DNA of 13,693 nucleotides from a virus. The stretch is from the UHGV virus genome UHGV-0482402; one strand, given 5' to 3'. Shown piece after piece: positions 953-10,614 of this stretch. The translations under genes were made by a program, and so were the position numbers. Every line of letters starts with the position of its first letter. The first letter of the stretch is position 1. The notes below the pieces were generated by a model. It did not search any database. It had not been told where the DNA came from and worked only from the letters and a program-made list of their open reading frames with translations.

Positions 953-1189
953 ATGGGCAATGTGATTCAACTGGCTCCCAATGAATGGGTTTGTGAAAGC
1001 GTTCTTATCGCAATTACCGGGCTCAAACCAGGCACAATTCTTCGGGCCCGGAAAGAATGCTGGATGGTTGGAAGAGAGTATATTCACGTATCACCAGACG
1101 GTAATCCAAAGCCTTCCAGTGAATGTATGTATAACAGAAAAGCAATAGATGCCTGGGTCGCCTCAATGAAAAACAAACAACCTAGGTGA
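953..1189 (+). CDS. xis: excisionase (Xis-like winged-helix DNA-binding protein)
   Basis: 78-aa basic protein immediately upstream of the integrase. It carries a ...KECWMVGREYIHVS... motif reminiscent of lambda Xis (..DGREYLFH..). GAGGT lies 5 nt before the ATG. Confidence 0.6.
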   Translation: MGNVIQLAPNEWVCESVLIAITGLKPGTILRARKECWMVGREYIHVSPDGNPKPSSECMYNRKAIDAWVASMKNKQPR

Positions 1190-1244: not shown

Positions 1245-2558
1245 ATGGATAAAGTCAAATATCCAACAGGCGTCGAAAACCACGGCGGCACATTACGCAT
1301 CTGGTTTAATTTTAAAGGTAAACGTGTCAGGGAAAATCTTGGTGTCCCTGACACTGCCAAGAACAGGAAGATCGCCGGGGAACTGCGGACATCAGTATGT
1401 TTTGCCATCCGCACAGGAAGCTTTGATTATGCTGCACAGTTCCCTGACTCCCCCAACCTTCAGGCTTTTGGGGTAAGTAAAAAAGAAATTACGGTGAAGG
1501 AACTTGAAGAAAAGTGGCTGGATCTGAAACGAATGGAAATCTCTGCAAATGCATTCAATCGCTATGAATCCGTTGCAAGAACGATGGTTCCGAAAATTGG
1601 AGGCAGTAGACTGGTGTCATCGGTAACCAAAGAGGAATTGCTGTATATCAGGAAAGATTTGCTGACCGGGTATCAGAATTCAACGAAAAACAAAGCAGCA
1701 GCAAAAGGACGGAGCGTCGTTACTGTAAATTATTACATGACGACAATCGCTGGAATGTTTCAGTTTGCTGCAGATCACGGTTACTTAGAAGCAAATCCCT
1801 TCCAGGGAATTAAGCCTCTTAAAAGAGCCAGGGCAGAGCCAGATCCGCTAACTCGTGACGAATTTATTCGCCTGATAGATGCTTGCCGACATCAGCAGAC
1901 GAAAAACCTGTGGTCATTGGCTGTGTACACAGGAATGCGTCACGGTGAACTGGTCTCCCTGGCCTGGGAAGATATCGATCTGAAGGCAGGAACAATTACC
2001 ATCAGGCGCAATTATACGAAACTTGGTGAGTTCACTCTACCGAAAACTGAAGCAAGCACAAACAGGGTTGTGCACCTTATCCAGCCCGCTATCAGTGTCC
2101 TGAAAAATCAGGCTGAAATGACAAGACTGGGTAAGCAGTACAACATCAAGGTGCAACTACGTGAATATGGACGTTCAGTGAACCATGAATGTACTTTCGT
2201 GTTTAACCCTCAAGTGGTTAGAAAAAGCGAACAGGTAGGTTTTGTCTACAAAGTCGATTCTGTAGGTGACTCATGGGAAACAGCCATTAAGCGTGCAGGG
2301 ATCAGGCATCGAAAGGCATACCAGTCACGACACACTTATGCGTGCTGGTCATTATCTGCCGGAGCAAACCCAAGCTTCATTGCCAGCCAGATGGGCCATG
2401 CAAGTGCCCAGATGGTATTCAATGTATACGGAGCATGGATGACTGACAGCAATGCAGAACAGATCGCAATGCTGAATCAGAAGCTGACAGATTATGTCCC
2501 AATGATGCCCCATAGTCACCAAAGTGACACCAGAGGCTTATTAAAATCAGTAAGTTAA
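1245..2558 (+). CDS. int: tyrosine site-specific integrase (lambda Int family, with N-terminal arm-binding domain)
   Basis: 437 aa. The N-terminus (YPTGVENHGGTLRIWFNFKGKRVRENLG) looks like an arm-type DNA-binding domain. The C-terminus has the catalytic signature region ...RHRKAYQSRHTYACW...HASAQMVFNVYGAW (R, H-x-x-R and a C-terminal Tyr). GGAGGT lies 4 nt before the ATG. Confidence 0.9.
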   Translation: MDKVKYPTGVENHGGTLRIWFNFKGKRVRENLGVPDTAKNRKIAGELRTSVCFAIRTGSFDYAAQFPDSPNLQAFGVSKKEITVKELEEKWLDLKRMEISANAFNRYESVARTMVPKIGGSRLVSSVTKEELLYIRKDLLTGYQNSTKNKAAAKGRSVVTVNYYMTTIAGMFQFAADHGYLEANPFQGIKPLKRARAEPDPLTRDEFIRLIDACRHQQTKNLWSLAVYTGMRHGELVSLAWEDIDLKAGTITIRRNYTKLGEFTLPKTEASTNRVVHLIQPAISVLKNQAEMTRLGKQYNIKVQLREYGRSVNHECTFVFNPQVVRKSEQVGFVYKVDSVGDSWETAIKRAGIRHRKAYQSRHTYACWSLSAGANPSFIASQMGHASAQMVFNVYGAWMTDSNAEQIAMLNQKLTDYVPMMPHSHQSDTRGLLKSVS

Positions 2559-2763
2559 TCCTTAATACCCGTCATGTTAACTGCGTGATACGGAATTTTT
2601 AAAAATCACTAAAGAACGCCCAAGAGCATGTGTTTTCTTTAGAAGAATCAAAGCGTTGCATTGCCATGTCATATAAAAATCGGCAAAGTTCATATGTAAC
2701 AAAGTGTCCCAATCATGCCCCAAAATGCCCCACAACAAATATTTTTGCCCCATGCATGCCCCA
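2495..2763 (+). repeat. putative attP region: five direct copies of TGCCCCA, including an 18-bp near-perfect direct repeat (putative Int arm-type sites)
   Basis: TGTCCCAATGATGCCCCA at 2495-2512 (inside the int 3' end) and TGTCCCAATCATGCCCCA at 2705-2722 match at 17 of 18 positions. Further TGCCCCA copies sit at 2726-2732, 2746-2752 and 2757-2763, all in the same orientation. The location immediately 3' of int is where lambdoid attP sits. Confidence 0.4.
2646..2658 (+). promoter_or_regulatory. candidate IHF binding site within the putative attP
   Basis: AATCAAAGCGTTG matches the IHF core consensus WATCAANNNNTTR at every specified position. A chance match is possible. Confidence 0.3.
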
Positions 2764-2783
2764 AAAAATCACTTTCCCTCACC

Positions 2784-2835
2784 TTGACACTGTTTATCCA
2801 TACAGTTAAAAATAATACTGTATACAAACACAGTG
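2784..2835 (+). promoter_or_regulatory. dinI promoter with two tandem LexA (SOS) boxes
   Basis: Consensus -35 TTGACA at 2784-2789. LexA-type CTGT-N8-ACAG boxes at 2790-2805 (CTGTTTATCCATACAG) and 2818-2833 (CTGTATACAAACACAG). An A/T-rich -10 candidate lies at 2807-2816. The Shine-Dalgarno AGAGGGA is at 2836-2842 and the dinI ATG at 2849. Confidence 0.6.
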
Positions 2836-2848
2836 TAGAGGGACTTTT

Positions 2849-3097
2849 ATGCGTATTGAGATCTGCATAGCCAAAGAAAAAATGACTAAAATGCCAACCG
2901 GTGCTGTGGATGCGTTAAAGGAAGAATTAACTCGGCGCATCAGTAAGCGTTATGACGATGTAGAAGTGATCGTAAAAGCCACCAGCAATGATGGGCTTTC
3001 TGTTACACGCACAGCAGATAAGGATTCTGCAAAAACATTTGTTCAGGAGACTCTGAAAGATACCTGGGAGTCTGCTGACGAGTGGTTTGTTCACTAA
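2849..3097 (+). CDS. dinI: DinI-family protein (RecA co-protease modulator)
   Basis: The 82-aa translation [37 protein letters not shown]...[16 protein letters not shown] aligns along its length with E. coli DinI as recalled (MRIEVTIAK...ETWESADDWFVSE). LexA boxes lie upstream. Confidence 0.85.
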
Positions 3098-3165
3098 TAA
3101 ACACGTAAAATCGGTAACGGCTGGAAATCATTCAATACTCGCACTATCGAAAGTTAACCAGCCAA

Positions 3166-3203
3166 CCGCAGTATCCTGTCATGACAAGTTACTGCGGCTT
3201 TTT
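3166..3203 (+). terminator. rho-independent terminator downstream of dinI
   Basis: Inverted repeat CCGCAGTA (3166-3173) and TACTGCGG (3190-3197), followed by CTTTTTACTTTTT. Confidence 0.45.
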
Positions 3204-3214
3204 ACTTTTTATAT

Positions 3215-3502
3215 TTAACGGATCAACATCCAGATCAGCAGACACGCCACCACCGGCACAGCAAAATCCATCAGGCTTGCCACATCCCACGCGCGTGGAT
3301 CAAAACCGCCCCACCACGGCATGTTAATCCGCTTGCCATGCCCGAACATTTCAATCCAGCGATATTCTGCCTGGGTGTGTTCCCGCGCAATGAAGAACGT
3401 ACAACCGGCTATCGCACCGTAAGCCCAGTTTCCGGTAAAAAGACCACCCAGTACCTGTGCGACCACAGCGCAAAGTGCGTGATGAATTGGGGTTTTATCC
3501 AT
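3215..3502 (-). CDS. small integral membrane protein (95 aa), translationally coupled to the tailspike gene; function unknown
   Basis: ATG at 3502-3500 directly abuts the tailspike stop (minus strand reads TAG-ATG). Hydrophobic segments are AVVAQVLGGLFTGNWAYGAIAGCTFFIA and LMDFAVPVVACLLIWMLI. It sits where P22 and Sf6 carry O-antigen conversion genes, between tailspike and att. Confidence 0.6.
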   Translation of the reverse strand: MDKTPIHHALCAVVAQVLGGLFTGNWAYGAIAGCTFFIAREHTQAEYRWIEMFGHGKRINMPWWGGFDPRAWDVASLMDFAVPVVACLLIWMLIR

Positions 3503-6088
3503 CTACTCTATCTCTTTTGCTTTTTTAATTATCAATTCAAGCTCTGTTAAACGAGATTCAATACGTTCACACCTTCTTCGCTGGAATGCAGCCTCCAACC
3601 ACAAACATTCATCTGGACGCAATCCCCAACGCTCACCAGCATGTACAACCAGTTCCGTGTCACCAGTATCGTATTCTTCAAAGTATTCGTGAACGATGTC
3701 TTCTCCTTCAGGGGATTTAGCTATAAATGACACCTTGCGCTGTGCCATTACAGGTTGGTACTCATCATCCCATTTATCATGACATAGCAAGCCAAATCTT
3801 GTTCCATCTATCCCCTTTGCAAGAAACGCATCTCTTACCTGCTGTGCAATTGCTCCGAAATGCCAACGAGCAGTATCCGAACCTTTAGCCTTAATATCGG
3901 ACAACCACTGGTAAACGATAATATTTACGTCACCCCATGCGTCAAGAATTGCATCCTGATCCACCTCCATGATTTCTGAAAGTTGCTCTACTGTCAGTGG
4001 CTTTGTTTTCAATGTCTGGTCTGAAGTATTTATTGCCCCATTAGTTGCATATACTTGCGTCCACCGTTTAGATGATGTCCCACATGATGACGTATTATCT
4101 TTATTAGCACTTATATAGCCATTAACCTCCGCTGACTGACCGATATACGAATATGAAGATGTTGATAAGGGAGATTTAAATATCCATTGAGCATTGGTAA
4201 AGTCATAAATACCGGTATCACCTTTTTCACTAACATGAAAAGTTACATTCCGTAACGTATTCTTTGCATCATAACGGGCGGCTTGTGTTGTTGCCCTCGA
4301 AACAGTGAATCCTTTGTCATCAAGGTTTGCCTGCTCTATGACTTCACCACCAGGCATAATTTTACCAAGGCTTAACAAACCAGAGTTAGTGACAATATCA
4401 TGGGTTGAATCAATGATAATACCAGGCTGATTTCTTGATGTTGTTTTTACATGCATTACCTGTTGTGGCATTAATGTGTAAAATGTAGTTTCTCGCCCAC
4501 TATCACCATCTGGTATGCCATTTGTATTCCCCATTACAAGGTCATACCCACCTGCAATCATACGGAAAAACATTGCTTCTGGTTCATATGTAAGATTGCT
4601 AACATCTGGCGTTCCGGTATCATTTGGATCTGCTATTTCATAGGCTCTTCCTGCACCTGCCTGTATTTGCTGCACCCCAAGATAAACACCATCAAGTGTG
4701 TACTGATGCAAATATTTTCTGGTTGAAGAATATGCAGATCCAGCCTGACAAAAATAAATAGCAGTACCGTCACACGCAACTGTTTGCATATCCCTCACAA
4801 AATCGGCAATTTCAAATTCAAAAGTTGCTTCATTACGATAATCGTAATTGTACGCCTGCGGGTTAATAAATTTGCTGGTATCAAATACTTTTACATAATA
4901 GCGAATTTGATCTGGTGTTGATGGGCTCTCACCAGGGCCAACATAACGTTTTGCTGTAGTAATCAGCCATCGACTCATAGGGTCGGTGCATAAAACATTT
5001 ACCTGATTCTCGTAACCATCTTCCCATATGAGAAAAAACTCTGGTTCAATTTCACCACCATCAGTAGGGGTGAATCTGGTGATATACTTTGCGCGATCCT
5101 CTCCTTTAGCTGTGCCAGCTAACCCCCATATCTGTAACTGGCCTCTTGTGTTACGAAAACCAACGCGCCCTATGGTTAAACCAAGACATTGATGTCCTAA
5201 TTCTCTACTACCTTTAGTCTCCCAAAGAGGAGTTAACTCTTCATTCCCAAACCAATTATAAGCAACAACTTTATTAACTTCATCACCAGAACTAACGCTG
5301 CCACTCACATTTACCAAGCAATAAAGAACACTGTCATAATAATCAAGAACAGCACCCTGTATGACAGTATTTTTAATTGTTGCCAGTCGCAACCCTGACT
5401 TAACATGATTAGGAGTAGAAGGTCTGAAACCTGTATACATCCCCTTTTTTATAGTTTGTATTCTTTTTTCAGTAAAATCAGCATCTGGCAGTAATCGATT
5501 CTCTGTGCGAAAATAGCCATTTATATACTTATTTCCATCAAAAACTTGATCTGTTATATATGTATTACCCCTTAGATCAACAATCCTTCCTGTGATTTGT
5601 TTTTCTAACTCTTGAAAAGATAATGTGTCATCGGTGATGCCATCACCTTTTGCTCCCCATCCGCGAGGGTCAGCGTCATCACGCCACCGAGACATCTGCA
5701 ATTCATGATATTTTTTAGCACCTTCCGGGTCTTCTAATTGTTGTCTTAATTGGTCTGGATCGTACTTAAGCACATTCGGAAAATAGAACTGCTGCGTACC
5801 ATATGCATCGTAAACAGCCATAGAATGGCCTTGCACGGTAACGAATTTGGAAATCTGTCCGTTGTATACCGGGTATCCAGCAGCATTGATAACGATTGGC
5901 TGTGGCACCTGAACATAAGTACCATCTTCTCGTTCCAGATATACTGGAATCTGGTTTTCTGGATTTACCGGATCTGTGTCAATCTTACCGATATAAATTT
6001 TTCCATTTGCTACGGTTTTAAAAGAGCTAGCCATTGTGAAGAGTTGCGATGGCATACCTATCACAACATTTGGGGTTATATCAGGCAT
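3503..6088 (-). CDS. tailspike protein: P22 gp9-type head-binding domain, central pectate-lyase-type beta-helix (putative polysaccharide depolymerase) and C-terminal S74-type intramolecular chaperone
   Basis: The N-terminus [50 protein letters not shown]...[13 protein letters not shown]...NVLKYDPDQ matches the recalled P22 tailspike N-terminus (MTDITANVVV...[27 protein letters not shown]...[13 protein letters not shown]...NVLKYDPDQ). [13 protein letters not shown] beta-helix signature follows. The C-terminal roughly 173 aa begin at NTSDQTLK (Ser codon at 4022-4024) and end in a coiled coil. The start is placed at the ATG at 6088 (AGGA 8 nt upstream), not at the track start 6181. Confidence 0.9.
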
Positions 6089-6430
6089 ATTAGTCATCCT
6101 GTTTGAAGATTTAGATATTGAAGAAAACGGAATGACTGCAGACAACGATGCAATTGTTTTGAAAAATAACCTTCTATTCATTTAAAAACCATGCAACATG
6201 AACAAAACGATTATTTTACAATACTCAAGAATCTTGATCAACAGGCATATTATTTATGCGCTTAATGCGTCACTTACAAAAATAAAAACAAGTAATACCT
6301 TTATTCCTATCGTCCATGATTTTTATTTTCAAACATTATTAAATAACAATTCCTATTTATAATATCTGTCATTTAATTTGCTCCAGATACAAGTAATCGC
6401 TGCAGCGTGGCTACGGTGAATTTTGGGCAT

Positions 6431-6472: not shown

Positions 6473-7375
6473 TCAGTAGTTATGTACTGAAGGAGGTAAT
6501 TCTTTATTCTTAAGTCTCATCCATGCGGAAAGATTCGTTGGTCCATCTGGCTCATTGATATCAACATCTCGTGTGTGATTGATTAAAACGTCTCTCGCCA
6601 TTCCAATAACATACGAGAACTCATGACCGTAGTCGTAGCATCTGCCGGAATAGTTAGACTGAATTTGTTTTAGCGCCGGATACAGTTCGCGGAATAATGC
6701 CTGTGAGCGGTTGGCATAATCCCATAACCATACAAGGCTGTTTGCTTCTTTTGCAGAAAGCTCGTTGGTTTTCTTCTCTTGTTTGCCGATGAATTCGCCT
6801 TCAAGCACTACCCTGTGGATGTACTCTACGGCTTGCGGTATCTGAGACGCATCAAGCTCTTCAATACTTTCCACATTGAAACGCTGATGAATCATTGCAT
6901 AAGCTTCTGGGTACATTAGATGCTTTTTGCTGACCAGCATATTTACAGCATCACGAAGCGGAGTCCTGTCATCAACAGATGTTTTCTTACGTGCATTTTC
7001 TGCCTCTCCCTTTGTCCAGTAGTCATGCAGCACAGTAAAGCATTCTTCCTGGTACTGAATCAGTTTATCGCGGATGTCAGCACGAACTTTCTCAGGGTTG
7101 ATGCTGAACAGCCATCCATTTAACTTCTTCAAAGGAAGGCAGAGTAGCTTACGAAGCTTACCATCAGCGGCAACCATGTTCATATGAACACAGTTGAATT
7201 TGCTAATCTGCTTCATGAGTTTTGTTTGCTGCGTTGACCAGCTCATTCCAAGGTTTTCAACGATTGGCTTCATCGCAACATATGCAACTCCGGCAGCCAT
7301 GGCGGTGATAATTTGCTGACCGTTGAATGGTACGTAAGAGGTGTTCACTGCTTCTAAAATTGCTATACTATTCAT
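6473..7375 (-). CDS. ant: antirepressor Ant
   Basis: 300 aa from the ATG at 7375 ([29 protein letters not shown]...). GGAG lies upstream. It is immediately downstream of an Arc-like RHH gene and upstream of the tailspike, the same order as P22 arc-ant-gene 9. The track start at 7441 is a TTG that overlaps arc. Confidence 0.8.
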
Positions 7376-7447
7376 GTTGGTTTTTCTCCACGGATTTACT
7401 GACAACCGAAGCCCTGACTGTTCCCGCAGTTGGGGCTTCAACTTTTT
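7376..7447 (+). ncRNA. candidate sar-like antisense RNA covering the ant ribosome-binding site
   Basis: A plus-strand -10-like TATACT at 7364-7369 sits inside the first ant codons. A plus-strand intrinsic terminator follows: stem GAAGCCC (7408-7414) and GGGCTTC (7433-7439) with an inner ACTG/CAGT pairing, then AACTTTTT. The roughly 70-nt product would be antisense to the ant Shine-Dalgarno and start codon, like P22 sar. Confidence 0.4.
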
Positions 7448-7578
7448 AGGCTGCGAATAAGACGCTGCACTATTTCTGAATTTAAAGACCTGCCCTCCTC
7501 CTTAGCCTTTTCCTTCAATTTTTCTTTAATCTCTGGCGGGATACGAATCCCTAATGGAGCGATGTCTCTAACTTTCAT
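7438..7578 (-). CDS. arc: Arc-like ribbon-helix-helix repressor (46 aa)
   Basis: Minus-strand ORF missing from the track: [46 protein letters not shown]. It has the RHH signature (N-terminal beta-strand, then G-R-S-hNSEI) and lies directly upstream of ant. The Shine-Dalgarno is TGAGGGG. Confidence 0.7.
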
Positions 7579-7591
7579 TTCCCCTCACTTG

Positions 7592-7677
7592 CTACACCGT
7601 GATAACTAAATACTACACCGTGTTTATTTAAAGTCAAAATTTTTTTGCCTACACTGTGTAGCTATGCACAGCGTGCA
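7592..7677. promoter_or_regulatory. divergent immI control region with operator-like repeats
   Basis: CTACACCGTG occurs at 7592-7601 and again at 7613-7622. A perfect 13-bp palindrome CTACACTGTGTAG sits at 7649-7661 and a second, TGCACAGCGTGCA, at 7665-7677. All lie between the divergent arc (minus) and RHH-1 (plus) start codons. Confidence 0.45.
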
Positions 7678-7686
7678 GGAGGAGAA

Positions 7687-7926
7687 ATGAAAGGTGCAAG
7701 AGATATCAGTCCATTGGGGATTAGGATTCCAGACTATTTAAAGAAACGCATTCAGCAAGAAGCGGATAAAAACGGCAGATCAATGAACTCAGAGATCGTG
7801 CTTATCCTTCAAAAACATGTTGATAATCTTGATGGCTCTCGCTCACTTGAAGGATTCGCTAACCAAGAAGCTGATAAATTCAAAGAGGCGCTACTTGAGA
7901 CGCTAAAGACCATGTATGGTAAATAA
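7687..7926 (+). CDS. ribbon-helix-helix repressor, Mnt-like architecture (RHH plus C-terminal helical oligomerisation tail), paralogue 1
   Basis: ATG at 7687 follows GGAGGAG. Translation is MKGARDISPLGIRIPDYLKKRIQQEADKNGRSMNSEIVLILQKH...EADKFKEALLETLKTMYGK. The N-terminal strand (RDISPLGIRIP) is nearly identical to that of the divergent Arc-like protein ([11 protein letters not shown]). Confidence 0.7.
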   Translation: MKGARDISPLGIRIPDYLKKRIQQEADKNGRSMNSEIVLILQKHVDNLDGSRSLEGFANQEADKFKEALLETLKTMYGK

Positions 7927-7943
7927 TTATTCAGGATGTGCCG

Positions 7944-8201
7944 ATGTCTGATCGTAAGTACAAAAACCCTCAAGTGAATCTGAGGCTTCCTGTAGAGATA
8001 AAGGAACGTCTTATTGAACTGGCTGAGGCTAATTCTCGTTCATTAAATGCTGAGATGGTCGCGGCACTTGAAGCGTGGACAGAAAAAAATAAACACATTC
8101 AAGCACTAGACCTTGCAACTATAGCATCACGATTGATAGATCTTGAACATGATGTTGAGAAGTTGAAATGCATGTATAGCAACAATAAAGACGAAAGTTA
8201 G
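7944..8201 (+). CDS. ribbon-helix-helix repressor with Arc-type N-terminal strand and a C-terminal coiled-coil extension, paralogue 2
   Basis: ATG at 7944 is 7 nt after AGGA. Translation is MSDRKYKNPQVNLRLPVEIKERLIELAEANSRSLNAEMVAALEAW..., and its N-terminus resembles recalled P22 Arc (..PQFNLRWPREV..). Confidence 0.65.
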   Translation: MSDRKYKNPQVNLRLPVEIKERLIELAEANSRSLNAEMVAALEAWTEKNKHIQALDLATIASRLIDLEHDVEKLKCMYSNNKDES

Positions 8202-8224
8202 AGATACTAACTTGGAGTGATGGC

Positions 8225-8479
8225 ATGGCTAGAGACGATCCGCACTTTAACTTCCGTATGCCTTTGGAAGTAAGAGAAAAATTGAAATTAAGAGCAGAGG
8301 CTAACGGAAGGTCAATGAACTCAGAGTTATTACAAATCGTTCAGGATGCGCTATCAAAACCATCACCGATTGCAGGCTATCGCGACGATGCTGAACGCTT
8401 GGCTGATCAGCAAGCAGAGCAGTTCAAGGCCGTTGTGTTTGAGACACTTAAAAAGATTTATGGCAAGGATGAAAAATAA
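8225..8479 (+). CDS. mnt: Mnt repressor orthologue (ribbon-helix-helix)
   Basis: MARDDPHFNFRMPLEVREKLKLRAEANGRSMNSELLQIVQDALSKPSP... is near-identical over the N-terminal half to recalled P22 Mnt (MARDDPHFNFRMPMEVREKLKFRAEANGRSMNSELLQIVQDALSKPSP...). GGAG lies 7 nt upstream. Confidence 0.85.
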   Translation: MARDDPHFNFRMPLEVREKLKLRAEANGRSMNSELLQIVQDALSKPSPIAGYRDDAERLADQQAEQFKAVVFETLKKIYGKDEK

Positions 8480-9015
8480 TGCTGCACACAATTCATTTCT
8501 TATGCCCCGTTAACACTGCCACTGTTGGGCAACTTCAGAACCACTGTCTCACCGCATTATCTCAAGGCGCAACTGAATTAAATATCCATATATCAAGTCA
8601 GGGAGGGGAAACTGCCGCTGGCTTTACTGCGTATAACTTTCTTAAGTCACTCCCTGTTACCGTTAGAACTCACAACATAAGCAATGTTGAATCCATAGCT
8701 AATATCGTTTTCCTGGCTGGCTCAGAACGTTTCGCAAACCCATTATCAAGATTCCTGTTACATCCTCTATTATGGTGCTTTGCCTCCCCAGCCGCCGACC
8801 ATGCCAGATTGAGAGAGTACGGGAAATGCCTCGATAACGATCTTGATCGCTTCGTTGAGACGTTCAATATCGACATCGGAACCCATATTAGGTGGGCATC
8901 CCTGATAGCAGACTCGACCATTTTGGATGCTAACAAGGCTCTTGAGCATGGCATAATTAATTCCATAAAAACTGCAAGGCTGGTATCCAATCAGGCAAAC
9001 TGGTGGGTTGTTTGA
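8479..9015 (+). CDS. ClpP-like serine peptidase (ClpP/crotonase fold), translationally coupled to mnt
   Basis: Its ATG overlaps the mnt stop (TAATG). LNIHISSQGGETAAGFTAYNF...NVESIANIVFLAGSERFANPLSRFLLHP lines up with recalled E. coli ClpP ([21 protein letters not shown]...[32 protein letters not shown]). Candidate triad residues are the Ser in ESIAN, the His in LLHP and a downstream Asp in IADSTILD. Confidence 0.65.
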   Translation: MLHTIHFLCPVNTATVGQLQNHCLTALSQGATELNIHISSQGGETAAGFTAYNFLKSLPVTVRTHNISNVESIANIVFLAGSERFANPLSRFLLHPLLWCFASPAADHARLREYGKCLDNDLDRFVETFNIDIGTHIRWASLIADSTILDANKALEHGIINSIKTARLVSNQANWWVV

Positions 9016-9092: not shown

Positions 9093-9278
9093 TTAACAGC
9101 CTCCGCGTCCACGAGTAATTCTGTCGCGGATTTGCTTCCTGCGGTGGTTTAAGCTGGAGAGCTTGGCTTCTGCTTCTGATATTTGCGCATCAAGATCTTT
9201 AAGTTCAAGATCTGAAAGTCGCTGGTCAAGCAGGGTTTGGTTTAACTCAATGTTGTTCAGGCGTTCTTCTATGGTCAT
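9093..9278 (-). CDS. small coiled-coil protein (61 aa), function unknown
   Basis: Track ORF trimmed to the ATG at 9278, which has AGGA 8 nt upstream. MTIEERLNNIELNQTLLDQRLSDLELKDLDAQISEAEAKLSSLNHRRKQIRDRITRGRGGC is a heptad-like, charged helix with a basic tail. Confidence 0.4.
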   Translation of the reverse strand: MTIEERLNNIELNQTLLDQRLSDLELKDLDAQISEAEAKLSSLNHRRKQIRDRITRGRGGC

Positions 9279-9309
9279 AACTTTCATCCTATAACTATTT
9301 GGAATTAAA

Positions 9310-9492
9310 ATGAAAAATATATTAATTGGTTTCGTTTTTGGTGCAGCCTGCGCCGCCAGCATTAGCGTCATAGCCGCTCAGATTGTTGGTGGTAACTCAT
9401 ATCTAATGGGCTATGACGTCATGATAAATGGAGAGGTTGTTTGCTCAGACCCTTATGTATGGACCTCGACAAAAGAAATAGAATGTGACTAA
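9310..9492 (+). CDS. small secreted or membrane-anchored protein with N-terminal signal peptide (60 aa), function unknown
   Basis: [24 protein letters not shown]... has a hydrophobic N-terminus. The mature part has two Cys ([17 protein letters not shown]). A terminator follows. The Shine-Dalgarno is weak (GGA). Confidence 0.45.
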
Positions 9493-9788: not shown

Positions 9789-9810
9789 AGCCGGTTCACT
9801 CCGGCTTTTT
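9789..9810 (+). terminator. rho-independent terminator downstream of the YjzC-like gene (overlaps the last codons of the convergent HExxH gene)
   Basis: AGCCGG-TTCACT-CCGGCT followed by TTTT. Confidence 0.45.
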
Positions 9811-10161
9811 GATATGTCGTTCGCAGAACTCAACAAGCCTGCTCATTAAGTAGCAGTAAGTCTCGTTGGCTCTTCCTGGTTCAACATCAACACCGACCCT
9901 TGAGCAGATATCGAATGCCATGTGAGCGCACTCATGGGCAATAGTAGATAGTTTGCCATTGAACACGCCTATCACATGCAAAACACCATTCTCGCTGCTC
10001 ATTGTATGAGACGCTCCGTTGGCATCCGAGTCCTGCACGTCCACACCAAGTTTTTGATGCAGGCGTTGCCATTCTGGAAAGTCTCTACAAAACACAATTG
10101 TACCGCTCTCAAAGAGCGGTACGAGCATCTTTGGTACGTTTCCAATGTTAACTTTTTTCAT
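9796..10161 (-). CDS. minimal HExxH zinc-metallopeptidase-like protein (121 aa)
   Basis: HECAH motif within ...KLSTIAHECAHMAFDICSRVGVDVEPGRANETY..., with downstream Glu candidates for a third zinc ligand. AGGA lies 4-5 nt before the ATG at 10161. No transmembrane segment is evident. Confidence 0.55.
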   Translation of the reverse strand: MKKVNIGNVPKMLVPLFESGTIVFCRDFPEWQRLHQKLGVDVQDSDANGASHTMSSENGVLHVIGVFNGKLSTIAHECAHMAFDICSRVGVDVEPGRANETYCYLMSRLVEFCERHIKKPE

Positions 10162-10191
10162 GGTATCCTGCTCAAAACTAAGGAGGTTGGT

Positions 10192-10614
10192 GTGTTTGGC
10201 ATATTAACGAGAAGCAAGATAAAAAAATTAAGGGCGGAACTTGCCGAAACACAAAAATTAGCTTCACATTTTTACAAAATGAAACACGACGCTGAAGAGC
10301 GTGCATTCGTTGAGTTATGCGACCTATCTATTCGTATGGGGGTAGAGCCAGATGTAGCGGCAAAAACTCAAGAAGGCGTTAATATACTTGCAGATGTTGT
10401 TTTAAACAGACAATATGCGTTTTATCTAAACGAAAAAGCCATTCAAATTTACTCGCAAATTTTCCTCTTGGAAAAAAGGAGAGGAACTCGCGATAGAGAA
10501 GAGTGGCTAAATGAAGTTGTTAAAAAATCTGGCTGGGAAGTTGTTTCATCAGAGCTACCTTTTATTTGTGCTGATTTAATCGAAGAGGCAAAAGAGCGCC
10601 TATCCGATGGTTAG
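10192..10614 (+). CDS. hypothetical 140-aa protein, divergent from the HExxH gene
   Basis: Track ORF 9976-10614 trimmed to the GTG at 10192, which is 5 nt after a strong AAGGAGG (10180-10186); the earlier part overlaps the HExxH gene. The protein is a charged, helix-rich sequence with no family I recognise. Confidence 0.45.
   Translation: MFGILTRSKIKKLRAELAETQKLASHFYKMKHDAEERAFVELCDLSIRMGVEPDVAAKTQEGVNILADVVLNRQYAFYLNEKAIQIYSQIFLLEKRRGTRDREEWLNEVVKKSGWEVVSSELPFICADLIEEAKERLSDG

Follow-up and report, generated by a model that had tools for sequence, protein, structure and literature searches.

A dinI-like gene with two candidate LexA operators beside attP of a P22-like temperate phage: a moron that may restrain prophage induction

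DinI-type genes of chromosomes and mobile elements

The chromosomal DinI of E. coli (b1061; structures 1GHH and 7YWA) resembles the product of the phage gene described here in being a single-domain protein of about 80 aa with the same fold, and all eight of its contacts to RecA are identical or conservatively replaced in the phage protein. Chromosomal dinI is monocistronic, with a LexA box over its promoter and a terminator downstream, and the phage cassette repeats this organization; it differs in possessing two operators, in being phage-borne and located near attP, and in a long 3' UTR that derives from a shared lambdoid element. The dinI homologues of the prophages Gifsy-1, -2 and -3 (Lemire et al. 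2011, PMC3121763) also code for DinI paralogues, and their promoters carry a LexA box. They are induced by DNA damage, which for our cassette is predicted from the sequence. In Gifsy, however, dinI has one operator, is the first gene of an operon that also includes an antirepressor gene (gfoA/gftA) and irsA, and lies 1.3 kb downstream of the replication genes, whereas the gene studied here stands alone beside attP, with two operators and no antirepressor.

Proteins 95–100% identical to ours are encoded by mEp460 (gp21, NC_019716), cdtI (orf30), Stx1 and Stx2 phages, CP-1639 and PhiR49_2. These phages share with our locus the two LexA boxes, the position near int/att and the same or a related type of promoter, but they are lambda-like siphoviruses, while our cassette resides in a P22-like podovirus backbone. 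The record of mEp460 bears the annotations "promoter" and "RecA filament binding protein DinI"; no LexA-box annotation was seen in the records of phages carrying the cassette. Coliphage 186 Tum and the split tum genes in PSP3 and Fels-2 likewise combine LexA control with a DinI-like segment. There, however, the DinI-like half is joined to, or lies beside, an antirepressor by which the phage repressor is inactivated; our gene lacks a partner of this kind. A functional analogy exists with PsiB of conjugative plasmids: it, too, is encoded by a mobile element, which profits from the modulation of RecA and the SOS response, as is proposed for phage DinI. PsiB, however, belongs to an unrelated family, is expressed when DNA enters the cell, independently of LexA, and has free RecA as its target. 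PsiB is named among the RecA modulators in PMC6590174.

We analyzed a stretch of 13,693 nucleotides of the virus genome UHGV-0482402 (hereafter "the window"), the relevant features of which are listed in Table 1. We interpret the locus as a one-gene, LexA-controlled moron at the attP end of a P22-like temperate phage, which encodes a paralogue of DinI, and we consider it rather probable that its function is to restrain prophage induction.

Table 1. Features of the dinI-like cassette and of its neighbourhood (window coordinates)
Feature	Position	Strand	Remarks
int	1245-2558	+	integrase with Arm-DNA-bind_2 domain
Four ATGCCCCA repeats	2505, 2715, 2725, 2756 (span 2505-2763)	+	flank the attP core
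attP core TTAACTGCGTG	2577-2587		end of the prophage; the dinI -35 follows 197 bp downstream
-35 hexamer TTGACA	2784-2789	+	coincides with the left border of the cassette
LexA operator 1 (candidate)	2788-2807	+	core CTGTTTATCCATACAG at 2790-2805; occupies the -35/-10 spacer
-10-like hexamer AAAAAT	2808-2813	+	18-nt spacer; 10/12 consensus positions
LexA operator 2 (candidate)	2816-2835	+	core CTGTATACAAACACAG at 2818-2833; over the predicted transcription start
Shine-Dalgarno GAGGG	2838-2842	+	read from the sequence; 6 nt ahead of the ATG
dinI-like coding sequence	2849-3097	+	82 aa and stop codon
Conserved non-coding 3' UTR stretch	3105-3165	+	GTAAAATCGGTAACGGCTGG...CCAGCCAA; separate module, also in phages without dinI
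Intrinsic-terminator-like hairpin and U-tract	3166-3197 and 3199-3212	+	direct folding
Tailspike	3503-6181	-	endosialidase-type
P22-type Ant	6473-8479		under Arc/Mnt/sar control

The DinI-like protein and its cassette

The 82-aa protein scores 70.9 bits against the Pfam DinI family (PF06183, cut-off 24.2), with residues 16–80 aligned to positions 1–63 of the 63-position profile, and it matches PHROG 189 ("RecA filament binding protein DinI"). A phmmer search of the PDB aligned its residues 1–81 to residues 1–79 of E. coli DinI (1GHH/7YWA, E = 3.7e-13), and the same two entries were the top two PDB matches of a single-sequence AlphaFold2 model (pLDDT 77; probability 1.00, TM 0.64–0.68), in agreement with the architecture expected of DinI, i.e. 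about 80 aa in the order beta-alpha-beta-beta-alpha. The residues by which DinI contacts RecA are L13, L21, W71, W77 and F78 of a hydrophobic pocket and E24, E69 and D76 of an acidic patch (PMC9926225). Their equivalents in the window protein are M15, L23, W73, W79, F80, E26, D71 and E78; thus, three positions are changed with respect to E. coli DinI (L to M, E to D and D to E) and the other five are identical. In six aligned phage homologues these residues are the same as in the window protein or show Asp/Glu swaps only. The original assignment of the gene to the DinI family is therefore upheld by the Pfam match, by the full-length likeness in sequence and fold and by the RecA-contact residues, and the protein, a "DinI-like family protein" in RefSeq, is a paralogue of DinI. 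From the retained contact residues and fold we predict that it binds RecA filaments. With 49% identity to E. coli DinI and a score of 73 bits in NF007893, the NCBIfam equivalog model of DinI, below the cut-off of 111 (E. coli DinI: 178), it may differ from DinI in affinity and effect. Comparison with the mEp460 copy revealed 10 synonymous and no non-synonymous differences (dN/dS 0), and dN/dS against more diverged copies is 0.05–0.23, which strongly indicates that the coding sequence is under purifying selection.

The position of the gene is defined by the attP core on one side and by the tailspike gene on the other. The core is identical to attB within yecE of K-12 and to the junction of yecD-yecE' with the prophage in strain 19AR1724, and the linear record of PhiR49_2 is cut at the position that corresponds to approximately 2586–2589 of the window. 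The four ATGCCCCA matches (0.62 expected) all lie inside 260 bp around the core and are probably arm-type sites of the integrase; they are also found ahead of dinI in PhiR49_2, P-EibC and Stx2 phages. Downstream, dinI converges on the late/tailspike operon. PADLOC assigned neither DinI nor its neighbours to a defence system.

The cassette has a sharp left border: homology with mEp460, cdtI and PhiR12_2* begins 0–2 nt before the -35 hexamer, and the sequences upstream are unrelated. It is absent from the P22-like prophage of MLI114, which has the same tailspike module, and its carriers include lambda-like, Stx and P22-like genomes. This border, the absence from a related prophage and the unrelated backbones bear out the sequence-only reading of the gene as a moron next to attP, and the attP core and tailspike in Table 1 confirm the placement between attachment region and tailspike that the same reading had given. 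The cassette is thus a typical phage moron, i.e. a discrete, horizontally mobile unit. It is also an ordinary one, already annotated in more than 100 phages; we found it in 133–211 phage records and, using the promoter and coding sequence only as the query, in 1660 of 5426 complete E. coli genomes (~31%), with up to 7 copies per genome. An earlier count of 5246/5426, obtained with positions 2560–3230 as the query, was discarded as inflated by a relic of the 3' element in the core genome. The exact junction of dinI with the tailspike module seen in the window was found in no complete E. coli genome.

Promoter, operators and the 3' element

The promoter has a consensus -35 hexamer, as had been proposed, and a -10-like hexamer that is retained in both promoter types found among the cassettes, with an imperfect match to the consensus. 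An alternative -10, TAAAAA, lies at 2807–2812 with a 17-nt spacer. The motif CTGT-N8-ACAG occurs exactly twice in the window, both times on the dinI promoter, against 0.14 sites expected from shuffled sequences. A heterology index was derived anew from a set of 22 E. coli operators, of which the dinI operator alone was checked against its sequence; it gives 6.1 for operator 1 and 3.6 for operator 2, the best site of the window, compared with a range of 0.2 to 9.8 for the 22 sites of the set and 7.9 for the best site among 100 shuffled windows. Both scores are operator-grade, and the two well-formed LexA boxes of the initial reading are thereby substantiated. A third, weak LexA-like site, in int at 1721, has an index of 10.6, inside the shuffled range, and was taken as a chance match.

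Both operators are present in all 55 IMG/VR loci. The CTG...CAG triplets of operator 1 are intact in 19/19 promoter variants from these loci and in 9 diverged cassettes, operator 2 is retained in every variant, and the pair is preserved through mixed pairings of the two promoter types with two types of coding sequence. (The first scan of viral contigs yielded solely proteins of 99–100% identity; two more scans brought the diverged lineages.) Operator 1 is lost in one natural variant, so the double operator is not indispensable. Among chromosomal dinI orthologues that a scan of genome contigs returned and that served as a control, 77 of 80 have one operator and none has two, and the dinI versions of Gifsy and of Klebsiella phages also have a single operator. 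Compared with chromosomal dinI, the double operator predicts a tighter repression. Gifsy dinI genes are controlled by LexA (PMC3121763) and increase 4.6- to 23-fold under nalidixic acid (PMC8072944), and LexA binding to Klebsiella dinI has been detected by ChIP (PMC10907235). On the basis of the operator sequences and of the Salmonella prophage homologues we infer that the cassette is a candidate member of the LexA regulon, bound by LexA and induced in the SOS response.

The coding sequence is followed, 68 nt after the stop codon, by a hairpin of -14.8 kcal/mol (z = -4.3) and the T-rich tract CTTTTTACTTTTT. A consensus terminator scanner run over positions 2400–3600 made no call here because of its loop limit of 8 nt. 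The hairpin forms part of a conserved element of approximately 95 nt (3105–3197), which also occurs in phages without dinI. Copies are found in lambda (24160–24265, in the b region), HK633, Rac and others and in 5391/5426 E. coli genomes, where the core-genome copy adjoins a dinI relic. According to individual folding of the variants, every one of them retains the hairpin despite sequence change, while the tail comprises 9 T of 12 in the window version and 10 of 12 in the two closest variants, and is weak in several others. These data qualify two claims of the sequence-only reading, namely that the gene ends at its own terminator and that it is transcribed independently of the phage operons. 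A hairpin with a U-tract does follow the gene, and independent transcription agrees with the presence of its own promoter, the terminator-like hairpin and the convergent orientation; the hairpin, however, belongs to the shared element and is not strictly the gene's own.

The best-studied setting of prophage dinI genes is at the head of a LexA-controlled antirepressor module, of the type of Gifsy dinI-gfoA or 186 tum (PMC3121763), and the profile of PHROG 189 could be taken to point in the same direction: it has 151 positions, of which the window protein covers 71–149, and the remainder probably comes from fused, Tum-like members. Yet the protein corresponds to the DinI half only and has no N-terminal extension, and the 68 nt between stop codon and hairpin contain no conserved ORF. 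The sole ORF there (3087–3218, TTG start) crosses the variable hairpin and is absent from the copies in lambda and HK633, and the phage possesses a separate P22-type Ant. The antirepressor operon was rejected for lack of both space and a conserved ORF ahead of the terminator, and we regard this role of the gene as extremely improbable.

It could also be proposed that the payload of the cassette is partly or wholly RNA, with the 3' UTR freed as an Hfq-dependent small RNA. The dinI mRNA of Klebsiella yields such an RNA, DinR, a repressor of ftsZ (PMC10907235); the 3' UTR of our gene is about 100 nt long up to the end of the hairpin, with some 60 nt nearly invariant and a hairpin and U-tail thereafter; and both lambda and the E. 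coli core genome have kept the element in the absence of an intact dinI. On the other hand, an Rfam search with the element returned no family even at E ≤ 1, the first hairpin of the 3' UTR (3119–3163) shows no compensatory changes or covariation and has several pairs broken, many copies of the element are devoid of the U-tail, and the strong purifying selection on the protein indicates that the coding function matters. We therefore consider an RNA payload very unlikely. A DinR-like RNA aimed at ftsZ was tried as a specific candidate and rejected: the duplex with the E. coli ftsZ initiation region has an energy of -20.4 kcal/mol, the mean for shuffled sequences is -19.7 kcal/mol, and 40% of the shuffles are as good.

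RecA modulation and prophage induction

With a DinI-like protein as the product, the cassette could operate in the following manner. In the undamaged lysogen, LexA dimers on both operators, one in the -35/-10 spacer and one at the start site, would keep dinI off. Upon DNA damage, activation of RecA and self-cleavage of LexA would open the promoter, and the 82-aa protein would be made. Its hydrophobic pocket is expected to take F203 of the RecA L2 loop, with the acidic residues facing K232, R243 and K245 of RecA, and UmuD and LexA-like phage repressors depend on this site as well. DinI and lambda CI bind the same elements of RecA, the L2 loop and the basic patch (PMC9926225), and the repressors of the carrier phages mEp460 and PhiR49_2 consist of an HTH and a Peptidase_S24 domain; the repressor gene of the phage studied here lies outside the window. 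As the phage copy would add to the cellular dose of DinI at a shared site on RecA, the net effect would most likely be that RecA filaments are stabilized while slow RecA-dependent cleavages, such as those of S24-type repressors and UmuD, are held back. The suggestion made at the outset, that DinI damps the co-protease activity of RecA and so modulates repressor cleavage in a self-stabilizing circuit, is a plausible hypothesis. The outcome, which forms the last step of the mechanism, would be a higher damage threshold for prophage induction or a delay of induction.

The dose of DinI is critical for this scheme. DinI stabilizes filaments at levels stoichiometric with RecA and inhibits only at high levels (PMC6590174), and since it is mainly a positive modulator in the stoichiometric range, the sign of its effect on induction is uncertain. 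A phage DinI might thus mainly stabilize RecA filaments under the same LexA control, sustain the SOS signal and RecA-dependent recombination, and either favour induction or the recombination of phage DNA or be neutral for the phage; in cryo-EM and negative-stain images filaments are indeed longer and more numerous when DinI is present (PMC9926225). However, DinI sits on the groove elements that lambda CI needs (PMC9926225), so that bound DinI should exclude the repressor monomer, and extra gene copies shift the dose towards the inhibitory range. A purely stabilizing role appears to us unlikely.

As far as we found, prophage dinI genes have been tested genetically only in Gifsy-1 and Gifsy-3, in which non-polar dinI deletions left induction unchanged (data not shown in PMC3121763). 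This result fits the notion that the cassette is a lysogenic-conversion gene, whose extra DinI tempers SOS mutagenesis or toxicity (e.g. with quinolones) and hardly affects the induction of its own phage. Consistent with this notion are a DinI-like prophage gene in a cluster linked to the evolution of quinolone resistance in E. coli (PMC10575684), the movement of the cassette among unrelated phages and its location beside the cargo genes nleC and cdtABC, as is usual for fitness morons, and its presence in ~31% of genomes. Nevertheless, Gifsy phages do not rely on repressor cleavage, and their deletions are therefore not decisive and do not apply to cleavage-type repressors; the association in PMC10575684 is a correlation only. 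A contribution to host fitness is rather unlikely as the main role of the gene, and it is compatible with restraint of induction rather than exclusive of it.

Restraint of prophage induction by phage DinI, the function we prefer, has a precedent in the literature, as it has been put forward for Stx2a phages in which dinI lies next to nleC (PMC8456039), and Stx2_EH2201 carries this very cassette in the dinI-nleC arrangement. The gene and its family are established, as is the principle that prophage dinI genes can be under LexA control, and restraint of induction is a plausible, directly testable hypothesis that comes as no surprise. A broader and rather improbable extension is that the operator pair creates a tightly shut, late-opening dinI that restrains in trans all S24 repressors of a polylysogen (with up to 7 copies per genome), is used in competition or coordination among prophages and spares those induced through LexA-controlled antirepressors; as a separate part of this speculation, the 60-nt element with its hairpin might be an RNA or DNA module of its own. 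If phage DinI restrains repressor cleavage, the copy number of dinI would help to set how readily the prophages of a strain fire under DNA-damaging antibiotics. Because Stx phages carry the cassette, such restraint would also bear on toxin release and on SOS-driven mutagenesis: E. coli O157:H7 possesses several dinI copies, including those of Stx phages with this same cassette.

A DinI paralogue behind two LexA operators

The ORF between int and the tailspike gene had been read from the sequence alone as a DinI-family gene, and this assignment is borne out: the product matches Pfam DinI (70.9 bits, cut-off 24.2) and PHROG 189 ("RecA filament binding protein DinI"), aligns along its whole length with E. 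coli DinI (PDB 1GHH, 7YWA; E = 3.7e-13, identity 49%), and its AlphaFold2 single-sequence model (pLDDT 77) has 1GHH and 7YWA as its only significant PDB matches. It scores below the NCBI equivalog threshold for chromosomal DinI (73 bits vs 111) and is a DinI paralogue, in agreement with its RefSeq name "DinI-like family protein". In the RecA-DinI cryo-EM structure, a hydrophobic pocket (L13, L21, W71, W77, F78) takes RecA F203 and an acidic patch (E24, E69, D76) lies opposite RecA K232/R243/K245 (PMC9926225). The equivalents here are M15, L23, W73, W79, F80 and E26, D71, E78; in all six aligned phage homologues the contact residues are the same or show only Asp/Glu swaps. Purifying selection on the gene is strong, with 10 synonymous and no non-synonymous differences from the copy in phage mEp460, and dN/dS of 0.06–0.23 against copies with 62–71% protein identity.

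Two copies of the motif CTGT-N8-ACAG are present in the entire window (0.14 expected), one in the promoter spacer (box 1) and one over the predicted start site (box 2). A heterology index re-derived from 22 E. coli operators (the dinI operator among them confirmed against sequence) gives 6.1 and 3.6 for the two 20-mers; the 22 sites span 0.2–9.8, and both boxes do better than the best site among 100 shuffled windows (7.9). By sequence, the product belongs to the DinI family and keeps the RecA-contact residues, and the promoter is overlapped by two LexA sites of operator grade. The ORF, the promoter, both LexA boxes and the downstream hairpin confirm the observation and coordinates of the sequence-only reading.

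Both boxes are present in all 55 IMG/VR loci with sufficient upstream sequence, and among 19 promoter variants changes affect the -35 hexamer, the spacer within each box and the stretch between the boxes, never the CTG/CAG triplets. The promoter and the coding sequence each exist in two types, found in mixed pairings that all retain both boxes; in P-EibC box 1 comes from one promoter type and box 2 from the other. The upstream box of the second promoter type starts with CTGG and scores more weakly, and box 1 has been lost from one natural variant. The distance between box centres varies (27–29 bp); the boxes therefore need not keep a strict helical phase. Chromosomal dinI orthologues of Enterobacteriaceae, in contrast, have exactly one operator in 77 of 80 cases and two in none, and a Klebsiella-phage dinI lineage and the dinI genes of the Salmonella prophages Gifsy likewise carry one. 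The double operator is thus a hallmark of this E. coli lambdoid cassette, and it predicts tighter repression than that of chromosomal dinI. On the opposite strand (2839-2812) a weak promoter-like match (TCTACA-16 nt-TATTAT, 9/12 positions) overlaps box 2 and points towards attP; it is probably due to chance, and if real would likewise be under LexA control.

Features of the dinI cassette, its surroundings and copies of the shared 3' element
Feature	Position	Strand	Remark
Excisionase	953-1189	+	
Tyrosine integrase (int)	1245-2558	+	arm-binding domain
Attachment core TTAACTGCGTG	2577-2587		11 bp
-35 TTGACA	2784-2789	+	
LexA box 1	2790-2805		
-10-like AAAAAT	2808-2813	+	18-nt spacer after -35
LexA box 2	2818-2833		
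Ribosome site GAGGG		+	ends 6 nt upstream of ATG; read from sequence
dinI-like ORF	2849-3097	+	82 aa; between int and tailspike side
Shared 3' element	3105-3197		hairpin at 3166-3197
Tailspike	3503-6181	-	P22 head-binding and endosialidase-type domains
P22-type immI region	6473-8479		ant, sar RNA, Arc/Mnt genes
3' element copy, lambda	24160-24265 (L003 1501-1606)		between ea31 and ea47
3' element copy, HK633	L002 2001-2083		int-stf spacer
3' element copies, Rac, phiP27, others			
3' element copy, E. coli K-12	L014 643-776		between ecpE and ykgJ

Mobility of the cassette and its 3' element

The region from ~2783 to ~3171 was found in 133 phage records by megablast and in 211 by sensitive blastn, including mEp460, cdtI, CP-1639, PhiR49_2 and many Stx1 and Stx2 phages. 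Upstream sequences in mEp460, cdtI and PhiR12_2* are unrelated, and homology starts at the -35 hexamer. Promoter plus coding sequence (coverage >=80%) is carried by 1660 of 5426 complete E. coli genomes, with a maximum of 7 copies per genome. A P22-like prophage at lambda attB in strain MLI114 has a 99% identical tailspike module and no dinI, and the exact dinI-to-tailspike junction of the window is found in none of the 5426 genomes; dinI therefore arrived with the yecE-type int/attP module. The cassette often adjoins other cargo (nleC, cdtABC). Its sharp border, spread, presence/absence and neighbouring cargo make it a moron by properties, as had been proposed; the border at -35, the unrelated carriers and the MLI114 prophage uphold that claim. 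Comparison with further loci (L004, L005, L006, L009, L011) shows that 2784-3097 is itself mosaic: PhiR12_2* is 95% identical in the promoter and 76% in the coding sequence, and Stx2_EH2201 is the reverse, which implies recombination within the 300-bp unit.

In lysogen strain 19AR1724 the int-dinI module is inserted in yecE, and the attachment core was located by comparing the window, this junction and intact K-12 yecE. It is flanked by four ATGCCCCA repeats (0.62 expected), which are probably arm-type integrase sites, and lies 197 bp from the dinI -35; core, ORF and tailspike agree with the suggested placement between the attachment region and the tailspike side. In the prophage dinI occupies the extreme end, reading inward in the orientation of yecD-yecE'. 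In 6 of 7 other phages examined it lies beside int or at the extreme record end; in the seventh, phi330, its upstream neighbour is unannotated.

The downstream hairpin folds at -14.8 kcal/mol (z = -4.3), and CTTTTTACTTTTT comes after it. Homology to dinI-less phages begins ~8 nt past the stop codon, with ~60 nearly invariant nt (3105-3165) preceding the hairpin. The gene does have a plausible intrinsic terminator, but, contrary to what had been claimed, not strictly one of its own: the hairpin with its U-tract belongs to an element that many lambdoid phages share, whether they carry dinI or not. The hairpin is kept in every variant despite altered stem sequence; the window version has a good U-tail and several others a poor one, and other cassette lineages have different terminators. 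The element is present in 5391 of 5426 E. coli genomes. Its core-genome copy (ecpE-ykgJ) sits behind a frameshifted, truncated phage-type dinI relic (L014 643-876; residues 34-55 and 65-82 in two different frames); this has the look of an old prophage end that became fixed in the species, and the RefSeq table leaves it unannotated. The element might act as a terminator or insulator module, serve as a recombination linker or function as an RNA. It has no Rfam match, and its first predicted hairpin shows no covariation. In Klebsiella, dinI mRNA gives rise to the ftsZ-targeting small RNA DinR (PMC10907235); similar targeting was rejected here, as complementarity between the window element and E. 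coli ftsZ is unremarkable.

Possible role in prophage induction

LexA control of prophage dinI is established in principle: the Gifsy dinI genes are LexA-controlled (PMC3121763), nalidixic acid raises their expression 4.6- to 23-fold (PMC8072944), and LexA ChIP shows binding at Klebsiella dinI (PMC10907235). [quoted passage not shown] According to reviews, the effect of DinI varies with its dose: close to stoichiometric amounts filaments are stabilised, and high levels inhibit UmuD cleavage and recombinase activity (PMC6590174). A phage copy would raise this dose, and the net effect may be a brake on the slow RecA-dependent cleavages of phage repressor and UmuD, although DinI may instead act positively at the levels reached. 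Because the groove elements are common to DinI and repressor, a phage copy adds to the dose, and two carriers (mEp460, PhiR49_2) have HTH plus Peptidase_S24 repressors, we favour the brake, as the sequence-only reading did, with a confidence well below certainty. Against it, deletion of the dinI homologue of Gifsy-1 or Gifsy-3 left induction unchanged (PMC3121763); however, Gifsy prophages are induced via antirepressors rather than repressor cleavage, so this test is not decisive. The layout of the window dinI locus rules out an antirepressor operon. Equally compatible with the data, and not exclusive of the brake, is a benefit to the host, in which the gene tempers SOS mutagenesis or toxicity; an association of a DinI-like prophage gene with quinolone-resistance evolution (PMC10575684) speaks for this.

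Published phage genomes already list the identical protein (in mEp460 as gp21, with an annotated promoter), and an induction-limiting hypothesis has been written for Stx2a phages with a dinI gene (PMC8456039). In the literature we did not find stated the conserved double operator, the border at -35, or the shared 3' element with its core-genome relic; these are refinements, not a new kind of system. The widespread extra dinI copies may alter induction thresholds.

Neighbouring genes of the P22-like segment

The window is part of a P22-like temperate phage. Its immI region has three tandem Arc/Mnt-type ribbon-helix-helix ORFs (7645-7926, 7938-8201, 8225-8479; +), whereas P22 has one arc and one mnt, and a 178-aa ClpP-like protease ORF (8479-9015, +) begins at the mnt stop codon; PADLOC gave no match for any of these. 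Between immI and the ejection-protein genes lie three ORFs (9093-9371, -; 9796-10161, -; 9976-10614, +) with no Pfam domain and at most PHROG matches of unknown function; the last (212 aa) has no match whatever and overlaps the opposite-strand 121-aa ORF. A hydrophobic 95-aa ORF (3215-3502, -; PHROG 1443, unknown function) begins at the base right after the tailspike stop codon, and the homology break between the int-dinI and tailspike modules falls inside it (~3230-3263). It also occurs behind tail-fibre genes in lambda-like prophages (L013) and behind the tailspike in a P22-like prophage (L095). In the tailspike itself the P22 head-binding domain is joined to an N-terminal extension of endosialidase type and to a Peptidase_S74 intramolecular-chaperone domain. 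This points to a receptor-binding protein specific for capsule (polysialic-acid type) on a virion of P22-like build.
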